Assembly: GCA_934162195.1 (NCBI GenBank)
Contig: CAKPHO010000005.1
Location: forward strand, 6,515-70,514
DNA: 64,000 bases
From: an uncultured Bacilli bacterium
GTDB lineage: Bacteria; Bacillota_I; Bacilli_A; RF39; UBA660
Reading direction: 5' to 3'
Numbering within the stretch: the stretch's first letter is position 1; the number at the start of each line of letters is the position of its first letter. Below, in pieces: positions 1,722-62,970 of the stretch. The notes beneath the pieces were generated by a model. That model was not told where the DNA came from, made no database searches, and saw only the letters and a program-made list of their open reading frames with translations. A program made the translations under genes and the position numbers.

Positions 1722-2001
1722 TTAATTATTAGTGTAAAGGTACAATTATTTGTGCCTTTCTTTTTTGTGAAATATGGGGGTATATTTAATCATACTATAA
1801 TATTAAATGAAAAAATAAACACAAAGAAGCTAGGCTTTTAAATAACCTAGATTTCTTTGCGTTTTTTTGCTGTGCCTTTATAGGAAGGGAGTTGTTGTAT
1901 AAATACATAAAACACAAAAAATATATATTATGACTGGATGTTTATAATAAATAAAAAAGGGTATAATTAGAATGTATAATAGAGAGAGGAGTAAGAAATA
2001 T
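1722..2001. repeat. Conserved upstream module, copy 1: G5 tract + TTTAATCATACTATAAT + hairpin/T-run + second -10 (GGGTATAATTA) + RBS
   Basis: ~80% nucleotide identity to 26056..26369 and partial identity to 53545..53720; G-run 1776..1780, TATAAT 1796..1801, hairpin ~1820..1860 with T7 at 1863..1869. Confidence 0.7.
1737..1769 (+). terminator. Putative intrinsic terminator after ftsX
   Basis: AAAGGTAC/GTGCCTTT imperfect stem followed by CTTTTTTG. Confidence 0.4.
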
Positions 2002-3618
2002 ATGAAAAAGAAAGGATTTACTTTAATAGAATTACTAGCGGTAATAGTAGTATTAGCAATAATAGCGTTAATTGCAACCCCAATAGTAACAAGAGTAATA
2101 AGTTCTAGTAAGGATTCTGCTAATAAAATAAGTGCAAGTAATTTTGCGTCTAAAGCAAATGAATATGTAATAGAAGAAAGAATGAATGGAAATATAAAAA
2201 GTGGCAATATTTTTGATGAAGTATCAGAAAGAATGAATGGTAAGAAACCTACTTCGGGAGTAGTTTATTCTGATGATAATGGAAACATTGCTTTAGCTTT
2301 AGTATTTGATAATAGATGTTATACAAAAGAGTATAATAGTGATGAAATAAAAACAGCTGACATTAATGAATGTCATGCTCCAGTAGACTATTTAGCTCTT
2401 GGAAATACAAATAATGATACAGAATTAACATTCTTTAATGGACCAATTAAAAAAGGTAGCGTTGAAAAAATAATATTTGTAAATAACACTAATGTACCTA
2501 CAGATGCAATAGGAAGTTGGAATGCGAGTGCAAGTGGAGATGGAAAAGTAATTGCTTGGTATAAAGATGAAGATAATAATAGTTTATATGAAGTATATAT
2601 AGGTGAAAATGGTGGAGTAAAAGCTAATCCTGATTCATCTAGATTATTTAGTTATTTTTCAAATTTAGTTAGTTTGGATTTAAAATATCTTGATACATCA
2701 AGTGTGACAGATATGTCTTTAATGTTTAATAACTGTTCAAAATTAACTACGCTTGATTTAAGTAGTTTTGATACGTCACAAGTGACAAGTATGCGAGGAA
2801 TGTTTCAATTGTGCACTAATTTAACAGCATTAGATTTAGGAAACTTTAATACTTCCAATGTTACAAGCATGAGGAATATGTTTAATGAATGTTCAAGTTT
2901 AACTACTTTAGATTTAAGTAATTTTGACACGTCAAATGTTACGACTATGTATGCTATGTTCCAAAAAACTTCAAATTTAACGATGTTGAATGTAAGTAGT
3001 TTTGATACATCGAAAGTAACCGATATGGCTTTTATGTTTAGTAAATGTCTTAATTTGCCAGAATTAGATTTAAGTAATTTTGATACTTCAAATGTAACAA
3101 ATATGAGCGCTATGTTTCAAAGAGATTCTAGTCTTACATCACTAGATGTAAGTAAGTTTAATACATCAAAAGTAACAGATATGTCTAGAATGTTCAGCTT
3201 AGTAAGAAATGTTAAATCATTAGACGTTTCTCACTTTGATACCTCAAAAGTAACTAATATGACTTGGATGTTTAATGAATGCAATAATTTAGAATCTTTA
3301 AATTTAAAAAGTTTTAATACAAAATTAGTAACAGATATGAGTTATATGTTTGAAAACTGTTATAATTTGACTGATTTAGATTTGAGCAGTTTTGAAACTA
3401 GCAAGTTACAAAATATGGAGCACATGTTTGGTGGTAATTCTAAATTGACAAATATTAATTTATCAAAGGCAACATTTACTGCAGTAACTCAATATTCTGA
3501 GATGTTTAATGGTTGTGGATTAACTAGTATTGCAGTAAAAGATGATGATGCAAAAACATTTATTGATGCTAGATTAAAAGAGGCAAATATTAATATTGAA
3601 GCAACAAAAGCAAACTAA
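2002..3618 (+). CDS. Prepilin-type (class III signal) N-terminus fused to ~23 consecutive DUF285/BspA-type leucine-rich repeat units
   Basis: Start at the RBS-supported ATG (GAGAGGAG, then 9 nt), in-frame with the ORF beginning at 1972. N-terminus KKGFTLIELLAVIVVLAIIALIATPIV is the canonical G|FTLIE prepilin cleavage/methylation motif. The C-terminal module is ~23 repeats of roughly 26 aa of the pattern LxxLDLSNFDTSNVTxMxxMF (DUF285 / mycoplasma-BspA LRR type), one of the recognised DGR target domain classes. Confidence 0.8.
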   Translation: MKKKGFTLIELLAVIVVLAIIALIATPIVTRVISSSKDSANKISASNFASKANEYVIEERMNGNIKSGNIFDEVSERMNGKKPTSGVVYSDDNGNIALALVFDNRCYTKEYNSDEIKTADINECHAPVDYLALGNTNNDTELTFFNGPIKKGSVEKIIFVNNTNVPTDAIGSWNASASGDGKVIAWYKDEDNNSLYEVYIGENGGVKANPDSSRLFSYFSNLVSLDLKYLDTSSVTDMSLMFNNCSKLTTLDLSSFDTSQVTSMRGMFQLCTNLTALDLGNFNTSNVTSMRNMFNECSSLTTLDLSNFDTSNVTTMYAMFQKTSNLTMLNVSSFDTSKVTDMAFMFSKCLNLPELDLSNFDTSNVTNMSAMFQRDSSLTSLDVSKFNTSKVTDMSRMFSLVRNVKSLDVSHFDTSKVTNMTWMFNECNNLESLNLKSFNTKLVTDMSYMFENCYNLTDLDLSSFETSKLQNMEHMFGGNSKLTNINLSKATFTAVTQYSEMFNGCGLTSIAVKDDDAKTFIDARLKEANINIEATKAN

Positions 3619-8610: not shown

Positions 8611-10248
8611 ATGAAGAATAATAAGGGTTTTGCAATAAGTAGTGTTGTTTATGCAATGCTAATCCTTTTTTTAGGACTTATCTTATTAATTTTAGGAAAT
8701 TTAGCTAGCAGAAAAGCTATGTTCGATAAAGAAAAAAATGAGATACTTATGAGATTTAATAATTACGGATCTAGTAAAAAATTTGAAAATGGTGAAGTGG
8801 TATACTTTAATGTGACGTCAGGAGAATTATGTTCGTCATCAGAATATACAGAAACCCAAAGTAATACAGGGGTAAAAGAAGGGTGTATGAAGTTTTATGC
8901 TTTCAATGATGATGGAAAAAATAAAGTAAATTTAATATTAGACCATAATACCACACAATATGCGGCATGGAATTCAAGTGGAAGTAATTCAAGTGGTCCA
9001 AAAGATTTGTTAGACCAATTAAAAGCAGATACAAGATTATGGAAAGGAACAGAACCCCCATCAAACTATACGATGGATCAAACAATACAGAAAAGTAATG
9101 CAAATTATAAAATTAATTATAGTACATATAAAGCAAGATTAATAACGGCTCAAGAAATAGCTAAAATAACTGGTTATAAAGAATGGGATGAAAAAAGTAG
9201 TACTAATGTATATTATTTTGATACCAAAACATCATCACCAAGTCCTACCTGCAAAAGTGGAAACACAACTGGATGCAAATATGGATGGTTATATGACAGA
9301 ACATACACAAGTTGTATAGATTATGGATGCTTGAATAATTCAAATGTATATATGATTGGTTATTGGACCGCATCATCATATAGTAATTCATCTAGTAGTG
9401 CATGGTATGTAAATTATGGTGGCTTTGTGGTTAGTGGTGGTGTTAGTACAACAAATTATTTTGGTGTTCGTCCGGTTATAGAAGTATTAAAATCAAAATT
9501 AGTAAAAACATATGCCAATGGAGAAGTAGTATATTTTAATGTAGATAATGGAACAAAATGTACATCCAGTGAAGCAGTAAGTACAACAGGAACAAAGAGT
9601 GGATGTATGAAATTCTATGCCTTTAATGATGTTGGAAAAGATACAGTAAATTTAATCTTAGATCATAATACAACAGCAACAGTAGCATGGAATAATACAT
9701 ATAAAAATGATAGTGGTAGCATAGCCAATGCTAAAGGTCCAAAAGAATTATTAGACAAATTAAAAAGTGATACATCATCATGGAAAGGAACAATAACGCC
9801 AGCAAATTATACAATGGATCAATCAAATCAACCAAGCAATGCAAAATATACAATAGATTATAGTAGTTATAAAGCAAGATTAATAACAGCACATGAAATA
9901 GCTCAAATAACAGGAAATACGACATGGGATGAAAAGACTGCAAATAATATTTATTATTTAGACAGCAAAACAACTACTGCAAGTGCCACATGTAAAAGTG
10001 GGAATACAAGTGGATGTAGTTATGGTTGGCTATATGATAGAACATCTACTTCATGTACAACATATGGATGTTTAAATAATTCAGATAAAGAAACACACGG
10101 TTATTGGACTGCCTCTTCTCGTGCCGGCTACTATAGCCTCGCTTGGCGCGTGGGCAACGATGCTTACGTGAGCAGCGACGGCGTTTTCAATTCAAGCAGC
10201 GAAGGTGTGCGCCCAGTTATAACTGTCTTGAAATCTAGCCTTATATAA
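8611..10248 (+). CDS. Pilin-like membrane-anchored protein with two tandem DUF1566/Lcl-like modules
   Basis: N-terminus KGFAISSVVYAML is a hydrophobic helix, prepilin-like but without Glu+5. Two ~270-aa internal repeats (NGEVVYFNV...GCMKFYAFND...YKARLITA.EIA.ITG...GVRPVI.VLKS). Shares its C-terminal motif with the paralogs 18290, 26370 and 53768. Confidence 0.75.
   Translation: MKNNKGFAISSVVYAMLILFLGLILLILGNLASRKAMFDKEKNEILMRFNNYGSSKKFENGEVVYFNVTSGELCSSSEYTETQSNTGVKEGCMKFYAFNDDGKNKVNLILDHNTTQYAAWNSSGSNSSGPKDLLDQLKADTRLWKGTEPPSNYTMDQTIQKSNANYKINYSTYKARLITAQEIAKITGYKEWDEKSSTNVYYFDTKTSSPSPTCKSGNTTGCKYGWLYDRTYTSCIDYGCLNNSNVYMIGYWTASSYSNSSSSAWYVNYGGFVVSGGVSTTNYFGVRPVIEVLKSKLVKTYANGEVVYFNVDNGTKCTSSEAVSTTGTKSGCMKFYAFNDVGKDTVNLILDHNTTATVAWNNTYKNDSGSIANAKGPKELLDKLKSDTSSWKGTITPANYTMDQSNQPSNAKYTIDYSSYKARLITAHEIAQITGNTTWDEKTANNIYYLDSKTTTASATCKSGNTSGCSYGWLYDRTSTSCTTYGCLNNSDKETHGYWTASSRAGYYSLAWRVGNDAYVSSDGVFNSSSEGVRPVITVLKSSLI
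10126..10248 (+). other. GC-shifted 3' segment, candidate DGR variable repeat (VR)
   Basis: Codon usage switches abruptly to GCC/GGC/CGC/AGC/GAC/AAC in a 28% GC gene. Aligns codon-for-codon with 54640..54772 of the paralog (the only template-like partner in this window), differing mainly at codon positions 1 and 2 with C retained at position 3. Confidence 0.5.
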
Positions 10249-10294: not shown

Positions 10295-10502
10295 ATAAAA
10301 ACTTTGAGCTTGAGGAGTAAACTAAAGCGTTTTAAAGAGAGTCTATGGTTGGTGGAAATAGATAAATTAATTAGTTGAAGGTAGCAAGCTAGTTGAATAT
10401 CTAAGTAAATAGGATATTACGTATATTATGCGTTAAATAATTAAGGTGTAGAAATACATAAATTAAGGTGGTACCACGTAAACTCACGTCCTTATCTGGG
10501 AT
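10295..10502 (+). promoter_or_regulatory. T-box riboswitch leader upstream of valS
   Basis: AGAGAG box; conserved T-box sequence AAGGTGGTACCACG at ~10468..10481; terminator hairpin ACTCACGTCC/GGATGTGAGT followed by a T-run immediately before the RBS. Confidence 0.7.
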
Positions 10503-10535
10503 GTGAGTTTTTTATATTTTAATAGGAGGAATATT

Positions 10536-18195: not shown

Positions 18196-18218
18196 TTGGA
18201 TTTGTATAAATAAAATTA

Positions 18219-18245
18219 TTGACACAGAAAATTAGCTGTTATAAA
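18219..18245 (+). promoter_or_regulatory. Promoter of pilin-like gene 18290 (TTGACA ... TGtTATAAA)
   Basis: TTGACA 18219..18224; extended -10 TGTTATAAA 18237..18245 (15-nt spacer). Confidence 0.45.
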
Positions 18246-18289
18246 ATTAATACAGTAATAGTAGTAGTAAAGTATAGGAGGTAAAGATT

Positions 18290-19336
18290 ATGAAGAAAAA
18301 AGGCTTTACTTTAATAGAATTACTAGCGGTAATAGTAGTATTAGCTATCATTGCTCTAATAGCAACACCAATAGTAATGAGTGCAATTGAAAAATCAAAG
18401 AAAGGAGCAGCTGAGAGAAGTGCGGATAGCTACATCAAACAAGTAGAAACAGCAGTAGCAACAGAACGACTAGATGGAAATGAAGTCCAAAATGGAACAT
18501 ACGAAATAGATGGTGAAGGGAATTTAACAGGAAAAGGATTGCCAAACAATAAATTAGTTATTGACATGAAAGGAAATAAACCAATATCTGGAACAATAAC
18601 AATAAAAGATGGACAAGTAACAAATGATTCTAAGATGACAATTGGTGATTATGATGTTAAATATAATGAAGATAAAAAGAAATATGAAGCAACAAAAAGT
18701 GGTGGGACAAATCCAGATACACCATCAGTAAAAACATTATGTACTAAAAAAGAAGGAGTAGATTTAAATAATTTAGCTTCTGGAAATGAATTTACTTGTG
18801 AATTAGGAGATAATGATGCAAAAACATTTTATGTCTTAGAAACAAATGAGGATAATGTATCATTAATAATGAATGCTAATATTGATTCAAATGGAAAAGC
18901 TATAACGCCAGATAACATTCCAGATGATAAAGGATTAGTTGCATGGTCGGAAGACGGAAGCAATCATAAGGATGATGATGAATCAGCACAAGCAGTAACA
19001 GCAAAGGCATACTTATCATCAAGTACAACAAATTGGACTAAACTAAATCAATCACAAATTAAATTACCAACGGCAAGTCAGATTGCAGCAACGGCAGGGA
19101 CAACATTTGATGGTGTTAGTATGATAATGGGTTTACCAGCATGGATATATGATAACATGGATGGTACAGCAAATGCTGTATCTGGAATACCTGCTTATTG
19201 GACATCAACACCTTATAAATCTAATGATACTAATGCTTGGGGTGGTGGTGCTTACTCCAATCTAAGTAATTATAGTAGCGCAAGTACTTACGGTATACGT
19301 CCAGTAATAACTGTCTTAAAATCTGATCTTTCGTAA
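18290..19336 (+). CDS. Modular pilin-like protein: prepilin N-terminus + DUF1566/Lcl-like C-terminal module
   Basis: MKKKGFTLIELLAVIVVLAIIALIATPIVM; the first ~45 codons are nearly identical at nucleotide level to 26370 and 53768; C-terminal motif YWTSTPY...AWGGGAY...YGIRPVITVLKSDLS. Confidence 0.8.
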   Translation: MKKKGFTLIELLAVIVVLAIIALIATPIVMSAIEKSKKGAAERSADSYIKQVETAVATERLDGNEVQNGTYEIDGEGNLTGKGLPNNKLVIDMKGNKPISGTITIKDGQVTNDSKMTIGDYDVKYNEDKKKYEATKSGGTNPDTPSVKTLCTKKEGVDLNNLASGNEFTCELGDNDAKTFYVLETNEDNVSLIMNANIDSNGKAITPDNIPDDKGLVAWSEDGSNHKDDDESAQAVTAKAYLSSSTTNWTKLNQSQIKLPTASQIAATAGTTFDGVSMIMGLPAWIYDNMDGTANAVSGIPAYWTSTPYKSNDTNAWGGGAYSNLSNYSSASTYGIRPVITVLKSDLS

Positions 19337-26055: not shown

Positions 26056-26369
26056 TTGTTGTTGTATACTAAATATTATAAAGGTAATGATAGTATGGTT
26101 AAACAGAAAGTATAAAATTAACTTAATAACTCAAATTTGAACTGTGAAGTGGGTGGTATATTTAATCATATTATAAAATTAAATAAAAAAAGCACAAAGA
26201 AACTAGAACTATAAAAGGTCTAAGTATCTTTGTTTTTTTTGCTAAACTTTTATAAAGAAAATGTTGTATAAGTACATAAAGCATCAAAAATATGTATTAT
26301 GACTAGATGTTTATTTTAAATAAAAAAGGGTATAATTAAAATGTAAATCGTATAAGGAGGTAAGAAAAA
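26056..26369. repeat. Conserved upstream module, copy 2 (G3TG2 variant of the G-tract)
   Basis: Aligns with 1722..2001 over ~250 bp; GGGTGG 26151..26156 sits where copies 1 and 3 have G5/G9; TTTAATCATATTATAAA box; degenerate hairpin with T8 (26232..26239); GGGTATAATTA; GGAGG RBS. Confidence 0.7.
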
Positions 26370-27311
26370 ATGAAAAATAAAAAAGGATTTACACTTATCG
26401 AATTACTAGCGGTAATAGTTGTGTTAGCAATAATAGCACTAATAGCAACACCAATAGTAATGAATACAATAAAAAATGCGAAGAAAGGGGCAGCTGAAAG
26501 AAGTGCCGATAGCTACATAAAACAAGTAGAAACAACAGTAGCAGAAGCAAGGTTAGATAATAAAACAGTACCAGATGGAACATATCAAATAGATGAAGAA
26601 GGAAATTTAACAGGAGCAGGCTTACCAGATGGTAAATTAAAAATAGAAATGAATGGAAATAAGCCAACTTCTGGGATAATAGCAATATCAAATGGAGAAG
26701 TTTCACAAACAGGAACAACGATGACAATAGGAGAATATAATTTACGTTATAATGAAACATCAAAAAGCTATACTGCTGAAGTAGCAATTAAATTATGTAA
26801 AAAAGCATCAAGTGTAAATTTAAGTGATTTAAAATTAGGTGACGAATTTACATGTGATTTAGGTGATGAAGAAACAACTAAAAACTTAGTATTCTATGTG
26901 TTAGAAAAAAATGGTTCACAAGTATCTTTGATTATGAATAAAGTATTTACAACTCCAGCTGGAGATAAAGTTCCATATTCAATGAAAGCTAATGTATTTA
27001 AACTTTTCAAATATACTAAACTAGATGAATCACAAATTACTTTACCAAGTGGAGAGCAAATTGCCGCAGCAAGTAATAATACAACTTGGACACCAAGCGG
27101 TTCTAATACAGCTTTAGTTACAAATCAAATGCCAGATTGGTTAAAAACAAATTTAGATGTTACTGGTACATTCTGTTATTGGACATCAACAGCTTATGAT
27201 TCTAGTAAACAATGGGGCGCTGGATTAAAGGGGTTATATGCTGAAACAGCAGGTAATGCAACTTGTGGATTCCGTCCGGTTATAACAGTTTCAATATCTG
27301 CTTTAGGATAG
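26370..27311 (+). CDS. Modular pilin-like protein: prepilin N-terminus + DUF1566/Lcl-like C-terminal module
   Basis: MKNKKGFTLIELLAVIVVLAIIALIATPIVM; YWTSTAYDSSKQWGAG...CGFRPVITVSISALG. Confidence 0.8.
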   Translation: MKNKKGFTLIELLAVIVVLAIIALIATPIVMNTIKNAKKGAAERSADSYIKQVETTVAEARLDNKTVPDGTYQIDEEGNLTGAGLPDGKLKIEMNGNKPTSGIIAISNGEVSQTGTTMTIGEYNLRYNETSKSYTAEVAIKLCKKASSVNLSDLKLGDEFTCDLGDEETTKNLVFYVLEKNGSQVSLIMNKVFTTPAGDKVPYSMKANVFKLFKYTKLDESQITLPSGEQIAAASNNTTWTPSGSNTALVTNQMPDWLKTNLDVTGTFCYWTSTAYDSSKQWGAGLKGLYAETAGNATCGFRPVITVSISALG

Positions 27312-48689: not shown

Positions 48690-48910
48690 TTATATTGAAA
48701 GACAAACGAAGAGAGTAGTAATAATAAATTATGTTTAGAGAAGAAGTGGTTGGTGAAAACTTCTAATAAAATATTATGAACTTGCTTTTCTAGTTGCTTA
48801 TAGCCGTAGTTCTGCGTTAAAGATTTGAGAGTGTAATAAAATATTATGAAATAAGGTGGTACCGCGATCAATCGTCCTTATATTTATAATATTTTTGTTT
48901 TTAAGGAGGA
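48690..48910 (+). promoter_or_regulatory. T-box leader upstream of the small-membrane-protein/leuS operon
   Basis: AAGAGAG box; T-box sequence AAGGTGGTACCGCG 48853..48866; no canonical GC-rich terminator; CCTTAT (48876..48881) is complementary both to the upstream ATAAGG and to the SD TAAGGAGG. Confidence 0.55.
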
Positions 48911-48916
48911 TTTTTT

Positions 48917-49261
48917 ATGAAATATATTATTATGTTTGTGGTATCGTTTTTAGTGGTTTATTTAGCATATCTTTTTACGGTTATTTTAAATAAGAAAAAA
49001 TTAAAAAAATTTGAAACTAGTAATCAAGCTTTATACTTTAACAAAAAATATAATGTTAAAGTTAGTGATAAGAATGTAAAGTTACTTGCTAATTTAGTAG
49101 CGATTTCTAATGCATTTATTATTAGTACTACTTTGATTATTATTGATTTAGTACCAAACTATATATTAAAAGTATTAGTTGCGTTTGTAATAATAATTCC
49201 ACTAATTTTAGTTTTATATCACATTGTTGGTTTAGTAATGTTGAAAAGAGGTAATAAATAA
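48917..49261 (+). CDS. Small membrane protein (hypothetical), first gene of the leuS operon
   Basis: RBS AAGGAGG; three TM helices; its stop overlaps the leuS start (TAATG). Confidence 0.5.
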
Positions 49262-52670: not shown

Positions 52671-53489
52671 ATGAGTAATATAGAAGAATATACTGAAAAA
52701 ATTTTTGAAGATATTAAACATATTGATAATTCAAGTAATGAATATTGGGAAGCAAGAGAACTACAGCAAATACTTGGTTATAAAGAATGGAGATATTTTT
52801 CTAGTGTTATAGAAAAAGCTCAAATAGCTTGTTCTCAAAGTAATAACAACATTAATTCCCATTTTGGTGTAAACACCAAAATTGTGAAGACAGGGGTTTC
52901 AACTAAAAATATCATTGATTATAAGCTAAGTAGATATGCTTGTTATTTGATAGTTCAAAATGCTAATCCTAAATTTAAAACTGTTGCGTTAGGCCAGACA
53001 TACTTTGCAATACAAACAAGAAGAATGGAGTTAACAGAAGCTGAATATAGTAAATTATCAGAAGATGAAAAGAGATTGTATAGAAGAAAACAAACAAAAG
53101 ATGGTAATAAAGTTTTGTATAAAATAGCAAGAGAAAAAGGAGTTAAAAACTTTGATAAATTTACAAATGCAGGTTATAAAGGTTTATACAATGGTGAAAC
53201 AGCAAACGATATTGCTAAAAGAAAAGGCTTAAGGTATAGAGAAGATATATTAGATAATATGGGAAGTACTGAATTGGGAGCTAATGTGTTTAGAATAACT
53301 CAAACTGAAGCTTTATTAGAAAAACAAGAAGAAAAAAGCGAAAATATGGCAACTGATACTCATTATAAAGTAGGTAAAGCTATAAGAAAAGTTATAGAAG
53401 AATTAGGTGGTACTATGCCTGAAGATTTACCAACTCCAGATAAATCAATTAAAGAAATTGAAAAAAAGGAAACAAAATCTTTGATGTAA
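52671..53489 (+). CDS. dinD: DNA-damage-inducible protein D-like (DinD family)
   Basis: Close match to the E. coli DinD pattern: LSRYACYLIVQNANP, GQTYFAIQTRRMEL, DNMGSTELGANVFRITQTE. Confidence 0.75.
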   Translation: MSNIEEYTEKIFEDIKHIDNSSNEYWEARELQQILGYKEWRYFSSVIEKAQIACSQSNNNINSHFGVNTKIVKTGVSTKNIIDYKLSRYACYLIVQNANPKFKTVALGQTYFAIQTRRMELTEAEYSKLSEDEKRLYRRKQTKDGNKVLYKIAREKGVKNFDKFTNAGYKGLYNGETANDIAKRKGLRYREDILDNMGSTELGANVFRITQTEALLEKQEEKSENMATDTHYKVGKAIRKVIEELGGTMPEDLPTPDKSIKEIEKKETKSLM

Positions 53490-53514
53490 GTGTAGAAGAA
53501 TAGATTAATAATTG

Positions 53515-53544
53515 TTGACAATAACAAACAATAAATTGTATAAT
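53515..53544 (+). promoter_or_regulatory. Strong sigma-A promoter (TTGACA-18-TATAAT) ~250 nt upstream of pilin-like gene 53768
   Basis: TTGACA 53515..53520; TGTATAAT 53537..53544. Confidence 0.55.
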
Positions 53545-53720
53545 AAATACAGTAAAGGTAGCGATAGTATGGTTAAAGTATTCGTAGAACATAACTTCAA
53601 AAATAATAGCAGAAACACCAACCTGGGGGGGGGTTATTTAATCATACTATAATACTAAATACATATAAAAACACAAGAAAACTAGACTTGAAATAGTCTA
53701 GGTTTCTTTGTGTTTTTTAT
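53545..53720. repeat. Conserved upstream module, copy 3 (G9 variant)
   Basis: GTAAAGGTAGCGATAGTATGGTTAAAG block shared with copy 2; G9 53625..53633; TTTAATCATACTATAAT (TATAAT 53648..53653); hairpin 53671..53713 with a T-run. Confidence 0.7.
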
Positions 53721-53767
53721 TGTACCTTTACAAGTAAGTAAATCTAAATAAAAGAAGGAGGAGTATT

Positions 53768-54772
53768 ATGAAATTAAAAAATAAACACGGATTTACACTT
53801 ATAGAATTACTAGCGGTAATAGTAGTATTAGCAATAATCGCACTAATCGCAACACCAATAGTAATGAATACAATAAAAAAATCAAAGAAAGGAGCAGCTG
53901 AGAGAAGTGCGGATAGCTACATAAAACAAGTAGAAGTAGCAGTAGCAGAAGAACGACTAAATAAAAATGAAGTACTAGAAGGAGAATATCAAATAACAAG
54001 TGATGGAAATCTATGTAGAGATAAAAGTGCAAGTTGTTCAGATGATAACAAAATAAAAATAGAAATGAGCGGAACAAAACCAACATCAGGGAAAATAAAG
54101 ATAACAAATGGAAGTGTTGATCAATCATCATCAAGTATGATAATAGGAGATTATACTGTTTCATATAATTCTACTAAGAAAACATATGAAGCAATAGAGA
54201 AAGGAAATACACCACAAGTAGAAGTATTGTGTACAGCAAAAACAGCAGCAACAAAAGGAAATGTACCACAAGGACAATTTGCCTATGGAGATGGATATAC
54301 ATGTGAATTAGGTGATAATGATGCAAAAACATTCTTTGTACTAGAAACAAATGGAGATAATGTATCATTAATCATGGATAGAAACATAGATTCAAATGGT
54401 AAAGGAACAACAAGTGGAGGAAATACAGTAGCTTGGTGTAAATCAGGAAGTAATAATACATGTGCTGCAGATAGAGCATTAGAATACTTAAAAACAAGTA
54501 CAACAGGATGGACAAAATTAACAGAATCACAAATAAGCTTACCTTCATATGATCAAATATATAAAGCTGCGGGTAATAAAACTTCGGGATTACCAACATG
54601 GCTATATGAAAATAATGTATATGGTTATTGGACATCAACCCCTCATGCGTCTAACTCTAACCGCGCTTGGCTTGTGAACTACCACGGCAACTTGAACTTC
54701 AACTTCGTCGACTTCGACGACAGCTATGGCGTTCGTCCAGTTATAACTGTCTCAAAATCACAATTAGGATAA
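53768..54772 (+). CDS. Modular pilin-like protein: prepilin N-terminus + DUF1566/Lcl-like C-terminal module with a GC-shifted 3' end
   Basis: NKHGFTLIELLAVIVVLAIIALIATPIVM; first ~55 codons nearly identical to 26370 at nucleotide level; C-terminus YWTSTPHASNSNRAWLVNYHGNLNFNFVDFDDSYGVRPVITVSKSQLG. Confidence 0.8.
   Translation: MKLKNKHGFTLIELLAVIVVLAIIALIATPIVMNTIKKSKKGAAERSADSYIKQVEVAVAEERLNKNEVLEGEYQITSDGNLCRDKSASCSDDNKIKIEMSGTKPTSGKIKITNGSVDQSSSSMIIGDYTVSYNSTKKTYEAIEKGNTPQVEVLCTAKTAATKGNVPQGQFAYGDGYTCELGDNDAKTFFVLETNGDNVSLIMDRNIDSNGKGTTSGGNTVAWCKSGSNNTCAADRALEYLKTSTTGWTKLTESQISLPSYDQIYKAAGNKTSGLPTWLYENNVYGYWTSTPHASNSNRAWLVNYHGNLNFNFVDFDDSYGVRPVITVSKSQLG
54640..54772 (+). other. GC-shifted, AAC/NNC-codon-rich 3' segment, candidate DGR variable repeat (VR)
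   Basis: 15 of 16 consecutive codons end in C (aac tac cac ggc aac ttg aac ttc aac ttc gtc gac ttc gac gac agc); composition differs sharply from the rest of the gene; aligns codon-for-codon with 10126..10248, the only template-like partner in this window. Confidence 0.5.
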
Positions 54773-54776
54773 AAGA

Positions 54777-54810
54777 AAATGGTAAGTCGATGACTTGCCA
54801 TTTTTAGTTT
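54777..54810. terminator. Bidirectional terminator/hairpin between the pilin-like gene and tetR (AAATGGTAAGTC-GAT-GACTTGCCATTT + T-run)
   Basis: 11-12 bp stem with one G.U pair, immediately 3' of the candidate VR; the T-run overlaps the tetR stop. Confidence 0.6.
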
Positions 54811-55367
54811 ATATTATCTGGAATTAATATTTTTAAGTATTCCATAATTTGATCTTTAGTATACTTAGAACTATCACTTAACCATTCAACACCTAAGTTA
54901 ATAACCCCACCTAAATAGAATTTAGCAATTATATCACTAGGTATCTTTTTACTAATACTATCAGTTTTAATTTTATTTAAAATATCTTCATTAACAACAC
55001 TTAGTAAAATATCCATCATAATACTATTACGATTGTTAATCATGATAGAGCTATAAACATTTCTTTTGCTTTCAATATGATCTAAAAATAGTTCGATTAA
55101 TTTTATATAGTATTCTCTAGTGTTTAGATTATTGCTATTTTTATTAAGTTCATTAACAAATTCTTCTTTTAGATTACTAATAAAGTCTACTAGTAATTCA
55201 TATTTATCTTCGTAGTGAGCGTAGAAAGTAGAACGATTAATCATGGCTTTAGAACAAATATCAGAAACTTTTATTTCTTCAAAAGTTTTATCTTTCATTA
55301 AATCTATTAAGGCTTGATAGAGTAAGTTTTTAGTCTTAACAACGCGTAAATCTTTTTTCTTTTCCAT
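54804..55367 (-). CDS. TetR/AcrR-family transcriptional regulator
   Basis: N-terminal HTH LRVVKTKNLLYQALIDLMKDKTFEEIKVSDICSKAMINRSTFYAHY; divergent from the transporter gene. Confidence 0.8.
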   Translation of the reverse strand: MEKKKDLRVVKTKNLLYQALIDLMKDKTFEEIKVSDICSKAMINRSTFYAHYEDKYELLVDFISNLKEEFVNELNKNSNNLNTREYYIKLIELFLDHIESKRNVYSSIMINNRNSIMMDILLSVVNEDILNKIKTDSISKKIPSDIIAKFYLGGVINLGVEWLSDSSKYTKDQIMEYLKILIPDNIN

Positions 55368-60211: not shown

Positions 60212-61081
60212 GTGAATAATTATGAAAAAATTATGGAAAAAATAAAACGTGATCAAAGGTGTAGGCCTAAAAATTGTCCTGGGCCCACAGGACCACAAGG
60301 TCCACAGGGAATACCTGGTATTCAAGGACCACAAGGTGAAATAGGTCCTCAGGGAATACCTGGTAAGAGTGTTTCAATTCTAGGGGAATATAAAACTTAT
60401 GAAGAGTTAATAAAAAATCATCCTACAGGTAATGTTAATGATTCGTATTTAGTAAATGGTGATTTATACGTTTGGACAGAAAATGATGGCAAGTGGGATA
60501 ATGTTGGAAGAATAGCTGGACCAACAGGGCCTAAAGGAGATATTGGCCCTAAAGGAGAAAAAGGGGAAGATGGACCAACGGTATTACGTTCAGCTTATTT
60601 GGTTACTTTTAATGATGGTAATAATAAAGATGGAATAGAGGTTCCGAGAAATACAAATTTATCAATAACTAGAAAAGAGTTGGATGTTACTGATTTAGTG
60701 TCACTAAATACTGATAATACTATTAAGTTTAATGTTCCTGGATATTATAAAGTATCTTTTGTTGTATCAGCAACTATAAAAAATGAGAGTAATAAGTTTA
60801 ATCAAGATACTGATTTTATAACTTTGGGATTTAAGCAAAAAGATACAGACTTAATTTATGTAGGAGCAAGCAAGTGGGTAAATAGTGAGTTGGGAACGCA
60901 AATTTTTGGGCATGGTATTGTGGCAGTAACTAATACCAATAATTTATATGAACTTACTAATTTAGGTAGCAAGACAATTTATTTAAAAGCTCCAGATTTA
61001 AATAATATTATGTCATCTTCTTATTTTACTAATTCATTATTAACTATTGTTATTGATTATTTAGGAATAAAACAAGTTTAA
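60212..61081 (+). CDS. Collagen-like repeat protein with a globular C-terminal domain (BclA-like)
   Basis: G-X-Y repeats GPTGPQGPQGIPGIQGPQGEIGPQGIPGK and GPTGPKGDIGPKGEKGEDGPT; ~170-aa C-terminal non-collagen domain; probable GTG start after a GAGGAGG RBS. Confidence 0.7.
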   Translation: MNNYEKIMEKIKRDQRCRPKNCPGPTGPQGPQGIPGIQGPQGEIGPQGIPGKSVSILGEYKTYEELIKNHPTGNVNDSYLVNGDLYVWTENDGKWDNVGRIAGPTGPKGDIGPKGEKGEDGPTVLRSAYLVTFNDGNNKDGIEVPRNTNLSITRKELDVTDLVSLNTDNTIKFNVPGYYKVSFVVSATIKNESNKFNQDTDFITLGFKQKDTDLIYVGASKWVNSELGTQIFGHGIVAVTNTNNLYELTNLGSKTIYLKAPDLNNIMSSSYFTNSLLTIVIDYLGIKQV

Positions 61082-61095
61082 GGATAAGGTGTTTG

Positions 61096-62970
61096 ATGAA
61101 AATAATAAATAATAAAAGAGTTCAGGTGTTCACAAGTGAAGAATTGAATAATGTTTTAAAGATGGATAATGGTTATGATTATATATATTTAGGTAATAGT
61201 ATAGTTTTAGATAATGGAATTTCTATAAATGAAAACAAAATAAAAGTTACAATAGATGGAACTTATGAAGGATTTAGATATAAACTTACAGGGATAAATA
61301 GTACTGATATATCTGATACGATTATAGTTAGTGAAAATAATAAGGAAGTAATAATAAAAAATATGGATATTGAGAGTACTAATACTTATGGTGTAGTTTA
61401 TGTTCCGTTAGATAGAAACTATTCTGATGTAGTGGTAACATATGAAAATATTAAATTTAATGGAACTGAATTGTCATATAATCCTTATGGCACTACTAAA
61501 ATAATAGACTCAACTATTACAATTGAAACAACTAATAATGTTGATCCACAAGAAGTTTGTGATTCGGATAAAGTAATTCTTGGTGGTAATACTACTATAT
61601 CAAGTAAATCAACTTCTACACAGTTATTTTATTTTCGAAATGATACAATAAATCCTTCAGTAGTATTTTTATGTAAAAGTAAAGTCACTTTATCAACGCC
61701 TACCCAAGCTTTTATGAATGGAACCAATAAACTTAATTTTACTATCTTACATGATACAGAAGTTGATTTAACGACTGGTAATGGTTTTGCAGCTTATACT
61801 ACTCATGGTGCTAATAATGTATTGATTGAAGAAAGAGCTAGTTTAAAATTTATAGAGAACAATCATCAAAGAGTACCAATGTGGTCGGTATTTGGGAATT
61901 TTATTATGAAAGAAGGCTCCAAATTACAACTTATTAATTCCTTTGATAACACTCCAAGTGATAATTATAATATTCACTTTAAAGGAAATAATCAACAATT
62001 AATTTTGAATAATCCCAAGGTGGTAGCTATATATACTAAGAATGCTAATGTTATTTATACTAATAATCCATTAATATTTAAGATTAGTTGTAGTAGAATT
62101 AATATGTGGAAGGATTCAACATCTTTAGTAAATGCTGGAGGTATATACGATTTACCAGATTATTATTGGTATAAAGGAAAAGAATTAGTAAAATTTGAAG
62201 GGACTTTAACATCTAAAGAAACAACCGTTACTAATCATAATCTTACAGACGATGAATTAAATGAATTATTTGAATTAAGTAATTTTTCATTTCAGTCTAA
62301 AAAACAGTTTTCAATTGGAAATATAGCTACTAATATTCATTCTATTAGTAGTACAAGAAATAAAATAAGTGGACATACTATTGATTTTGCAGAAGTACTA
62401 ATAAAATATAATGATGTCTTAGAAATAGTTAATGCAAATAGTGATGGATTATTTGAACATATACCTACTAATGTTATTTCAGATAATACTGAAATAGAAA
62501 TAATTTCTAATAATCCAAGTAGTTTTGTTTATGAAACAAGAAAAATAATAGTACCTTATAGTGGTGAATTATCTTTAATGGAAACAGATACAACGATAGT
62601 TTTTTCTTTAACGTCTATTTCTAGTAATCCTCTTATTTTAGCAAAAAATAAGAATTTATTACTTAAAATAGTTGATAGTAGGATAAATAGTTCTAATTGG
62701 AAAGTATATGCTTCAATAAGTGGACCATTAACATCACAAAATGGATATATTTTAAATGATGCCTTAATATTTAAAACATTTGATGATATAGATATTGTGT
62801 TAACAAAAGAACCACAACTTATCTATACGGGAACTGATAATAATGGAGATATATTAAGAAATGTTATTACTTATTCGAACGATAAAGGACCATTACTTGA
62901 TCTTACTAATAATTTTTTAGAAGCTAATGAAGAATATTTTGCTGATATATATTTTAAAATTGAAGAGTAA
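61096..62970 (+). CDS. Large hypothetical protein (Asn/Thr-rich, probably beta-rich surface or exosporium-associated)
   Basis: 625-aa ORF between two collagen-like genes; no recognisable catalytic motifs. Confidence 0.4.
   Translation: MKIINNKRVQVFTSEELNNVLKMDNGYDYIYLGNSIVLDNGISINENKIKVTIDGTYEGFRYKLTGINSTDISDTIIVSENNKEVIIKNMDIESTNTYGVVYVPLDRNYSDVVVTYENIKFNGTELSYNPYGTTKIIDSTITIETTNNVDPQEVCDSDKVILGGNTTISSKSTSTQLFYFRNDTINPSVVFLCKSKVTLSTPTQAFMNGTNKLNFTILHDTEVDLTTGNGFAAYTTHGANNVLIEERASLKFIENNHQRVPMWSVFGNFIMKEGSKLQLINSFDNTPSDNYNIHFKGNNQQLILNNPKVVAIYTKNANVIYTNNPLIFKISCSRINMWKDSTSLVNAGGIYDLPDYYWYKGKELVKFEGTLTSKETTVTNHNLTDDELNELFELSNFSFQSKKQFSIGNIATNIHSISSTRNKISGHTIDFAEVLIKYNDVLEIVNANSDGLFEHIPTNVISDNTEIEIISNNPSSFVYETRKIIVPYSGELSLMETDTTIVFSLTSISSNPLILAKNKNLLLKIVDSRINSSNWKVYASISGPLTSQNGYILNDALIFKTFDDIDIVLTKEPQLIYTGTDNNGDILRNVITYSNDKGPLLDLTNNFLEANEEYFADIYFKIEE

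Follow-up and report, generated by a model that had tools for sequence, protein, structure and literature searches.

The stretch of DNA analyzed here, which we call the window, is 64,000 nucleotides (nt) long and comes from an uncultured Bacilli bacterium of the RF39 lineage (assembly GCA_934162195.1, contig CAKPHO010000005.1, positions 6,515 to 70,514); our subject is a leader module with a run of G residues that precedes pilin-like genes. The GC content of the window is 27.3%. It holds five pilin-like genes, starting at 2002, 18290, 26370, 41711 and 53768, and all five products carry the prepilin N-terminal methylation motif (GFxxxE and a hydrophobic helix) with scores above cut-off for Pfam N_methyl and NCBIfam TIGR02532. 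Every score against the ComGC, GspG and PilA equivalog models fell under cut-off, and these models leave the type IV pilin or pseudopilin subtype unassigned. A first-pass annotation had listed three pilin-like genes (2002, 26370 and 53768) behind a shared module, which it read as a phase-variable promoter; the prepilin motif is indeed present in those three, but the window total is five. The module was not found in the window ahead of genes 18290 and 41711. Gene 2002-3618 encodes a prepilin N-terminus followed by 10 PARCEL (DUF285, "Mycoplasma"-type) surface repeats, and by this domain content the predicted product is a pilin of modular build that ends in an adhesin-like module.

We number the three copies of the module along the window: copy 1 precedes gene 2002, copy 2 gene 26370 and copy 3 gene 53768. 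Read directly and aligned, all three share the core TATTTAATCATAYTATAA, a hairpin and a T-run upstream of the gene; a 19-mer, TATTTAATCATACTATAAT, is exact in copies 1 and 3 and has 2 mismatches in copy 2. To this extent the module is shared as had been claimed, but GATAGTATGGTTAAA occurs in copies 2 and 3 only. The region 1722-2001, where the module had been sited, holds its most decayed copy; the intact one lies at 53515-53767 (Table 1), and copy 3 is, judging by its sequence, the sole intact switch among the window copies.

Table 1. Features of the three module copies and the genes they precede (window coordinates; ORF, open reading frame; uORF, upstream ORF; RBS, ribosome-binding site; MFE, minimum free energy; SD, Shine-Dalgarno)
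Feature	Position	Strand	Details
Sigma-70 promoter, copy 3	53515..53544	+	TTGACA 53515-53520, 18 nt spacer, TATAAT 53539-53544; promoter scan 12/12
GTAAAGGTA	53552..53560	+	SD-like AAAGG (53554-53558), 10 nt 5' of leader ATG; also 5' strand of helix P1
Leader ORF (uORF) with G9	53569..53652	+	MVKVFVEHNFKNNSRNTNLGGGYLIIL, then stop TAA 53650-53652, within the "TATAAT" of the first-pass annotation
Helix P2, 5' arm GATAGTATGGTTAAA	53563..53577	+	Contains leader ATG 53569-53571; reverse complement of 53637-53651
G9 tract in leader ORF	53625..53633	+	Codons Leu-Gly-Gly-Gly; candidate slipped-strand frameshift site
Helix P2, 3' arm TTTAATCATACTATA	53637..53651	+	Frame-C stop ATT-TAA (53639-53641), frame-B stop CTA-TAA (53650-53652)
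Intrinsic terminator AAAACACAAGAAAACTAGACT..AGTCTAGGTTTCTTTGTG + T6 (53713-53718)	53667..53718	+	Terminator scan; fold -21.1 kcal/mol
TACCTTTAC	53723..53731	+	3' strand of outer helix P1; anti-SD for leader ORF, past terminator; MFE fold, alignment, pair counts
RBS AAGGAGGAG (53756-53764) and pilin-like gene 53768-54772 (334 aa)	53756..54772	+	Pfam N_methyl, NCBIfam TIGR02532
Copy 2, decayed module	26078..26254	+	No good promoter; interrupted tract GGGTGG 26151-26156; weaker hairpin, -10.8 kcal/mol
Copy 2, long-form extension	26255..27311	+	Box TGTATTATGACTAGATGTTTA, promoter-like GGGTATAAT (-10 at 26331-26336), RBS, pilin-like gene 26370-27311
Copy 1, remnant	1776..1868	+	G5 1776-1780, 3' arm 1785-1799, hairpin + T7 ~1817-1868
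Copy 1, long-form extension	1869..3618	+	Promoter-like GGGTATAAT (-10 at 1962-1967), RBS, pilin-like gene 2002-3618

The G9 run of copy 3 is the sole run of G or C longer than 5 in the window, and in dinucleotide-preserving shuffles the expected number of G8 matches is 0.11; it had been called unusual, and it is. The tract positions given for the three copies were also correct, as was the distance of 14 nt from the end of G9 to a TATAAT at 53648-53653. The inference drawn from that distance, that the tract occupies a -35 position, fails: the promoter scan shows no -35 hexamer there and places a canonical promoter ~80 nt upstream, with a predicted transcription start near 53551. The G9 run is probably not part of a promoter.

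The tract lies inside the leader ORF, and its length sets which of three stops that ORF would reach. TTTAATCATACTATAAT carries stop codons for two of the three frames and leaves the third open. In this open frame, frame A, the 3' arm at 53637-53651 reads F-N-H-T-I, and the frame ends at a TAG (53694-53696) inside the terminator hairpin. With G9, copy 3 is in frame B (stop 53650); G10 or G7 would give frame A (stop 53694), and G8 or G11 frame C (stop 53639). As sequenced, the predicted switch thus sits in the intermediate frame. Copy 3 is a "short form," with no promoter from the terminator to the gene. The hairpin and U-run had been put forward as a possible attenuator, and they do look like one.

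Related copies were collected in two scans. The first, of a genome collection with a 3'-arm pattern, yielded just two genomes with true copies, "uncultured Tenericutes bacterium UMGS688" and a Hadza "uncultured Bacilli" metagenome-assembled genome (MAG), with 8-9 copies each; 12 chance matches in unrelated taxa were dropped. The second, of metagenomes, required both arms and left the loop free, and added 34 loci from human-gut assemblies; one chance match was dropped. The total is 58 copies, 45 with distinct cores, and sample OLGM, the source of UMGS688, holds at least 14 by itself. Contigs of UMGS688 and of related metagenome assemblies often end 1-40 nt past the 3' arm (11 loci); the repeated module breaks short-read assemblies, and MAG copy numbers are probably too low.

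The order of elements is the same throughout this set. The -10 hexamer ends 24-25 nt 5' of the conserved leader ATG in 43/46 copies, the promoter match is perfect (12/12) in 21/46, and essentially all intact copies have a canonical promoter ~80 nt 5' of the tract, which means that the G tract is transcribed. All 31 copies with at least 300 nt of 3' sequence are followed by a GFTLIELLAVIVV pilin-like gene. Short forms account for 21 of these 31: the pilin ATG stands 45-53 nt past the T-run, with no promoter between. The other 10 are long forms, in which an insert of ~80 nt carries a second promoter-like GGGTATAAT. The search patterns were strand-blind, and no inverted copy was seen among the 46 copies checked upstream and the 31 checked downstream.

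The leader ORF is conserved as a reading frame on both sides of the tract. Its ATG, inside the 5' arm, is invariant; AAAGG(A/T) stands 10 nt before it, with the SD kept as AGTAAAGG in all copies. From ATG to tract the ORF frame is open in 44/45 distinct copies, the exception being window copy 2, and the other two frames (+1/+2) are closed by stops in 45/45. The ATG-to-tract distance is exactly 43 nt in 36/45, and the remaining lengths mostly differ by multiples of three. Of 13 non-redundant sequences (<80% mutual identity), 12 keep the frame open; their shuffle probabilities multiply to 4e-7. Past the tract the three frames end at distinct points: frame C at an ATT-TAA ending 30 nt 5' of the terminator stem, frame B at a CTA-TAA (within the TATAAT of the first-pass annotation) ending 19 nt 5' of it, and frame A, after ~20 more codons, at a TAG 28 nt into the hairpin in 27/34 copies. 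A virtual frame A reaches the hairpin in 34/34. The AT-rich linker from 3' arm to hairpin exists in 22 distinct versions, and frame A has stops in none of them, against 22/22 and 19/22 for the other frames. This openness on both sides (44/45 vs 0/45 before the tract; 22/22 in the linker) indicates that the tract is read by ribosomes. A protein search with the long-frame leader peptide returned 40 unnamed clusters of 31-50 aa from public assemblies; about 30 of the 40 read WG, WGG or WGGG before [LV]FNHTII..KENTKFLDFLxV, equivalent to G5-6, G8 or G11.

Tract length ranges from G5 to G11 among paralogues. The 45 distinct copies comprise 23 in frame C (21 with G9), 7 in frame B, 14 in frame A and 1 with a degenerate ORF (window copy 2); the frame-A tract lengths are 0, 2, 3, 3, 5, 5, 5, 6, 8, 8, 8, 10, 10 and 11. 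Short or absent tracts (G0-G6) are in the long frame in 8/9 cases, against a chance level of 1/3 (binomial p ~0.001 when copies are treated as independent; several are related). Such an excess would be expected were the long frame the functional ON state, to be locked when the tract is lost. Flank-based clustering of orthologues mostly linked loci with a common upstream gene and different cassettes, and gave two clean orthologous comparisons. In one, L035 (G8, frame A) and L055 (G9, frame C) are identical from promoter to tract; in the other, L008 (G8, frame B) and L071, L072 and L073 (G9, frame A) lie downstream of thrS behind ~420 nt of near-identical flank. Near-identical leader cassettes at different loci also differ mainly in the tract (G11/G9, G8/G9, G6/G8, G5/G9). 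Because these differences are genomic, the DNA tract itself must be mutable. Of the phase-variation proposal, a plausible slipped-strand tract survives, given the G5-G11 range and the single-G differences between orthologues, and the promoter mechanism does not.

Some tracts are interrupted by substitution: GGGGGGGAG, GGGAGGTG, GGGAGG and GGGTGGG (at L068, 12-198; L059; L065; L049). Interruptions of this kind would lock the frame, and they show that tracts decay as well as expand. The cassettes around the tracts also vary. Loci that share an upstream gene across samples carry different leader/pilin cassettes (L007/L058 vs L043; L008 vs L041; L039 vs L064; L047 vs L060; L050 vs L066), and near-identical cassettes of promoter, leader and pilin 5' end stand behind unrelated upstream genes, joined to divergent pilin 3' parts (L024, L045, L050, L067). 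This mixing suggests recombination or gene conversion among family members.

The transcript of the module is predicted to fold into three helices (53548-53770; MFE -50.8 kcal/mol, z = -4.06): an outer helix P1, an inner helix P2 and the terminator. P1 pairs GUAAAGGUA at 53552-53560 with UACCUUUAC at 53723-53731, with 93.7% of cells paired; its repeats are short, at 7-9 bp, and some copies have them mismatched or lack them. P2 pairs 53563-53577 with 53637-53651 over 13-15 bp that include G-U wobbles, and its loop of ~59 nt includes the G tract; it is 99.3% paired across 34 sequences (13 pairs counted). What had been described as two separate boxes, one upstream and one at the "-10," are the arms of this one 13-15 bp stem (minus-strand match at 26087-26105). 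Pairing in the three helices is 94-99% across the 34 copies and 41-51% in slid controls, changes in the 5' arm are G-U compatible, and the patterns that collected these copies had the 3' arm fixed. The terminator hairpin and T-run are present in 34/34, with a median of -21 kcal/mol; compensatory CG-to-UA changes occur in the terminator upper stem, and covariation elsewhere is almost nil. No Rfam 15 family reached gathering score on the module, and 53480-53790 gave only chance-level matches at E <=10. No alternative antiterminator helix is evident in the fold.

We suggest, with a probability of roughly 0.68, that the module works as a leader-peptide attenuator in which the poly-G tract sets the frame, and that it acts as a heritable on/off switch for the pilin-like gene. 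The promoter consensus, the conserved ORF, the three stop positions, the terminator, the polymorphic tract and the invariable downstream pilin-like gene are all read directly from the DNA, and the proposal joins them as follows. The strong sigma-70 promoter would start a transcript just 5' of AGUAAAGG; ribosomes would load at the SD within AGUAAAGG, initiate at the conserved AUG 10 nt on, translate ~14 codons (MV[KN]....PTW) and enter the G run, where the number of G residues would set the frame in which they leave it. In frames C and B the ribosome would stop inside UUAUUUAAUCAUACUAUAAU (at AUU-UAA or CUA-UAA), 30 or 19 nt short of the terminator stem; the hairpin would form and transcription would end ahead of the pilin-like gene (OFF or low). 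In frame A the ribosome would read ~20 extra codons to a UAG in the descending arm of the hairpin, and, following RNA polymerase, would occupy the loop and ascending arm at the moment the polymerase reaches the U-run. With the hairpin blocked, termination would fail, and the pilin-like gene 45-53 nt downstream would be transcribed (ON).

Slipped-strand gain or loss of one G in replication would make this switching heritable, reversible and specific to each gene, and with many copies per genome it would yield a combinatorial repertoire of modular pilin-like surface proteins. We infer from the sequences that the leader ORF is translated, that ribosome and polymerase are coupled and that the long frame is the ON state. 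The roles of P1 and P2 are more speculative. Once the transcript is complete they may shut the leader ORF, P2 by pairing the AUG region with the stop region and P1 by pairing the SD with a CCUUUAC past the terminator; alternatively, P2 might be a pause hairpin that synchronizes ribosome and polymerase. A broader version seems possible but doubtful: that the lineage carries at least 14 independent three-state poly-G attenuators per genome, that P1 and P2 confine leader translation to the first polymerase-coupled ribosome, and that the cassettes are shuffled by recombination. Each attenuator would gate one modular type IV pilin-like surface protein, and the whole would amount to a new design of translation-coupled attenuator.

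Several points weigh against the attenuator. P2 would bury the leader AUG, a difficulty for translating the ORF unless ribosomes initiate co-transcriptionally, and ribosome-polymerase coupling is weak in some Firmicutes. G9 is dominant (24/35 long tracts), which could reflect a fixed length selected for another reason rather than free switching; in the window species three independent assemblies are 100% identical, all with G9, and tract-length variation came to light only in related genomes. The second promoter of long-form copies would bypass the switch. N-terminal of the tract, variability is the same at all three codon positions, with no codon-position bias: the conserved thing is an open frame rather than a specific peptide, as expected of a regulatory leader. 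Finally, all inferences are drawn from consensus assemblies, and because the 3' arm was prescribed in the search patterns, some of the conservation of the frame-B and frame-C stops follows from how the copies were collected.

The alternative that fares best, though we think it unlikely, is that G9 is a site of programmed transcriptional slippage or ribosomal frameshifting, by which a fixed share of transcripts or ribosomes would enter the long frame, giving constant low expression and no heritable states. Homopolymers of 9 or more are known RNA polymerase slippage sites, and both the dominance of G9 and its identity in the three window-species assemblies fit such a site, but the genomic lengths differ at orthologous loci (G8 vs G9) and among near-identical cassettes (G5, G6, G8, G9, G11). 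Slippage and phase variation are not mutually exclusive, and slippage remains a real complement or alternative to the frame-set attenuator.

Ranked behind slippage, and also improbable, is a purely RNA-based leader, in which the terminator together with P1 and P2 makes up a riboswitch-like element, a protein-binding element or a small RNA (sRNA), the G-rich loop is a contact site (for a C/U-rich RNA or a protein, for example) and the ORF is incidental. Its strength is the stable fold, with conserved pairing well above that of the slid controls and a 5' arm whose changes are G-U compatible, and a variable G-repeat in an mRNA leader is targeted by a small RNA in the Helicobacter tlpB/RepG pair. 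The lack of an Rfam match even at E <=10, the near absence of covariation outside the terminator and the lack of an evident antiterminator helix count against it, and it leaves unexplained the single open frame (44/45, 22/22), the indels in threes and the tract-less copies that keep the long frame.

We regard as very unlikely that the small ORF encodes a functional regulator or membrane peptide of 38-40 aa whose C-terminus is toggled by the tract. The 40 clusters found in public assemblies do share a conserved C-terminal half (LFNHTII..KENTKFLDFLxV), but that half is encoded by the stem arm and terminator hairpin and is nucleotide-constrained, the N-terminal half is free at all codon positions, and the peptide has no Pfam domain and no name. 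The promoter model is less probable still. It places the tract in the -35 or spacer region of a promoter with its -10 at 53648-53653, length altering strength as in Mycoplasma vlp or Neisseria opc/porA; the perfect TATAAT 14 nt 3' of the tract invites it, and promoters of AT-rich Mollicutes-like genomes can work with a weak -35. Beyond the results of the promoter scan, however, RNA begun at this TATAAT would run into the terminator within ~20 nt and come off at a length of ~60 nt, and 21/31 copies have no later promoter; the TATAAT overlaps the conserved P2 3' arm and holds the in-frame leader stop CTA-TAA, and reading-frame conservation on either side of the tract is left unexplained.

Last, we dismiss as the least probable reading a DNA-level element, be it an invertible switch like fimS or cwpV or a miniature mobile element, built on the nested repeats (GTAAAGGTA/TACCTTTAC plus the 15-bp arms): although these inverted repeats flank the terminator between promoter and gene, the C. 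difficile cwpV switch has a similar repeat/terminator layout, the module is absent from the otherwise similar 18290 leader and near-identical leaders occur in different flanks, the orientation is uniform, with the upstream -10 in place in 43/46 copies and a pilin-like gene downstream in 31/31; inversion would keep termination, given the A-rich and T-rich flanks of the hairpin; the inner repeats lie ~60 bp apart and the outer ones are short and, in some copies, mismatched or absent; the proteins scanned beside the three copies (FtsX, Lon, thymidylate kinase, HD hydrolase, Bro-N, TetR, MMPL) are of housekeeping types and none is a recombinase, no recombinase screen having been made; and the module is always linked to the pilin 5' end, which gene-family duplication or conversion fits better than transposition.

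The poly-G attenuator proposed here has a close counterpart in Streptococcus gallolyticus, where the pil1 and pil3 loci carry GCAGA repeats in a leader peptide gene, followed by a stem-loop terminator and sortase-pilus genes (Danne et al., 2014, PLoS Pathog, PMC3894217). Out-of-frame changes in repeat number there extend the peptide into the terminator and raise transcription, and the model was tested by mutation of the ATG, insertion of three stops and deletion of the terminator; a TetR gene divergent from pil1 was shown not to regulate the pilus (PMC3894217). The four sequence-level features that define a pil1-type attenuator are all found in our module: a promoter with leader ORF, a variable repeat in that ORF, a terminator and a frame-dependent stop. 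The two systems share the order of promoter, RBS and ATG, repeat in a short leader ORF, terminator and pilus gene; in both a frame shift lengthens the leader peptide and moves the stop into or past the terminator. The OFF-state stop lies 39 nt upstream in S. gallolyticus UCN34, at least 28 nt in other isolates and 30 nt here. Both serve surface filaments of gut-associated Gram-positives, with more than one locus per genome.

The differences are equally clear. The repeat is a mononucleotide G run here and 13-22 GCAGA units in S. gallolyticus; in our module each of the three frames has a stop of its own (30 nt upstream of the terminator stem, 19 nt upstream of it and in the hairpin). The controlled genes are type IV pilin-like rather than sortase-assembled, a single metagenome sample or MAG holds at least 14 copies where S. 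gallolyticus has 2 loci, and the two conserved long-range helices have no described counterpart. There is no sequence similarity between the systems, and the host here is an uncultured low-GC Bacilli/"Tenericutes" gut lineage. In the literature searched on this mechanism we found phase variation by a repeat in a leader peptide with a terminator described in S. gallolyticus only. A switch of this logic has so far been shown by experiment only there; the homopolymer, the type IV pilin-like genes and the two extra helices set our module apart.

Other known systems match in part. In the E. coli pyrBI and trp/his leaders, also discussed in PMC3894217, a ribosome close behind RNA polymerase blocks the terminator hairpin, which is the role proposed here for the leader-ORF ribosome. 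Our module differs in that it lacks regulatory codon runs as well as any antiterminator or anti-antiterminator alternative, and its input would be a heritable frame change where theirs is tRNA or nucleotide supply. In slipped-strand promoter switches (Mycoplasma hyorhinis vlp poly-A, Neisseria opc/porA poly-G/C, Treponema tpr poly-G), too, a polymorphic homopolymer lies upstream of a surface-protein multigene family, but their tracts lie by the -35/-10 and act on initiation, whereas ours is ~80 nt past the promoter and in a reading frame. The leader G-repeat of Helicobacter pylori tlpB is an untranslated binding site for the RepG sRNA. There too a variable G run in a transcribed leader tunes the downstream gene; in contrast, our tract lies in an ORF that ends at a different point in each frame, and it has no known partner RNA.

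If the poly-G attenuator is real, the pil1-type design arose more than once, here as a sequence-unrelated version in a distant uncultured gut lineage, built on a homopolymer and multiplied across a family of pilin-like genes. Tract length modulo 3 would then predict the expression state of each pilin-like gene from sequence, and a single 150-nt read spans tract and terminator, so the rule is checkable in existing metagenome and metatranscriptome reads. Stochastic switching of pilin-like antigens would bear on bacterial persistence in the gut; in a different clade of uncultured reduced-genome gut bacteria, pilin-like proteins have been linked to host immune effects (PMC11680825). For annotation, a poly-G run beside a TATAAT in AT-rich DNA is not necessarily a promoter switch.

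Copies 1 and 2 illustrate how the module degrades. Copy 1 has lost the promoter, SD, leader ATG and 5' arm; the "GTAAAGGTA" once taken for its upstream box belongs to the terminator of the upstream ftsX-like gene, as the ascending arm of that hairpin (1736-1759), so the 5' third of the module is absent. The leader ORF of copy 2 is truncated to six codons (MVKQKV, stop 26113-26115). Both have the GGAGG RBS and second box GGGTATAAT as first described, which makes them long forms, and their genes are therefore probably driven by the second promoter. By their sequences, copies 1 and 2 are decayed remnants, and region 1722-2001 reads as a fossil of the switch, no longer working. A box, TGTATTATGACTAGATGTTTA, stands ~20 nt 5' of GGGTATAAT and is common to long forms (1900-1970, 26270-26340 and five related loci); it may serve as a regulator site or as the -35 of the second promoter. 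The segment GGGTATAATTAAAGTGTAAAGTA resembles the promoter of the module itself around its -10 and start.

Gene 18290 has a similar promoter (TTGACA-17-TATAAA; 18200-18292) and an identical start, ..ATACAGTAA, followed directly by GTAAAGTATAGGAGG and the ATG; the entire leader-ORF and terminator module is missing. Its leader looks like a natural "empty site," or like a deletion between GTAAAG repeats.

We found no mention of such a switch in literature on RF39 pilins. Immediately 5' of the intact switch (52671-53489) lies a gene for a protein with a Bro-N domain, which is typical of phage antirepressors, and 3' of its pilin-like gene, on the opposite strand at 54804-55367, a TetR-family regulator. 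Elsewhere in the window, two T-box leaders scored above the Rfam gathering threshold (10295-10496, 118 bits; 48702-48882, 107 bits), the first directly 5' of an 857-aa ORF at 10503 and the second ~380 nt 5' of a 798-aa class I tRNA-synthetase gene at 49261; a scan of the window for tRNA and tmRNA genes found none. The ORFs 8611-10248 (545 aa) and 61093-62970 (625 aa) have no Pfam match at E <=1e-5, and ORF 60212-61081 has a weak match to the collagen-triple-helix repeat.

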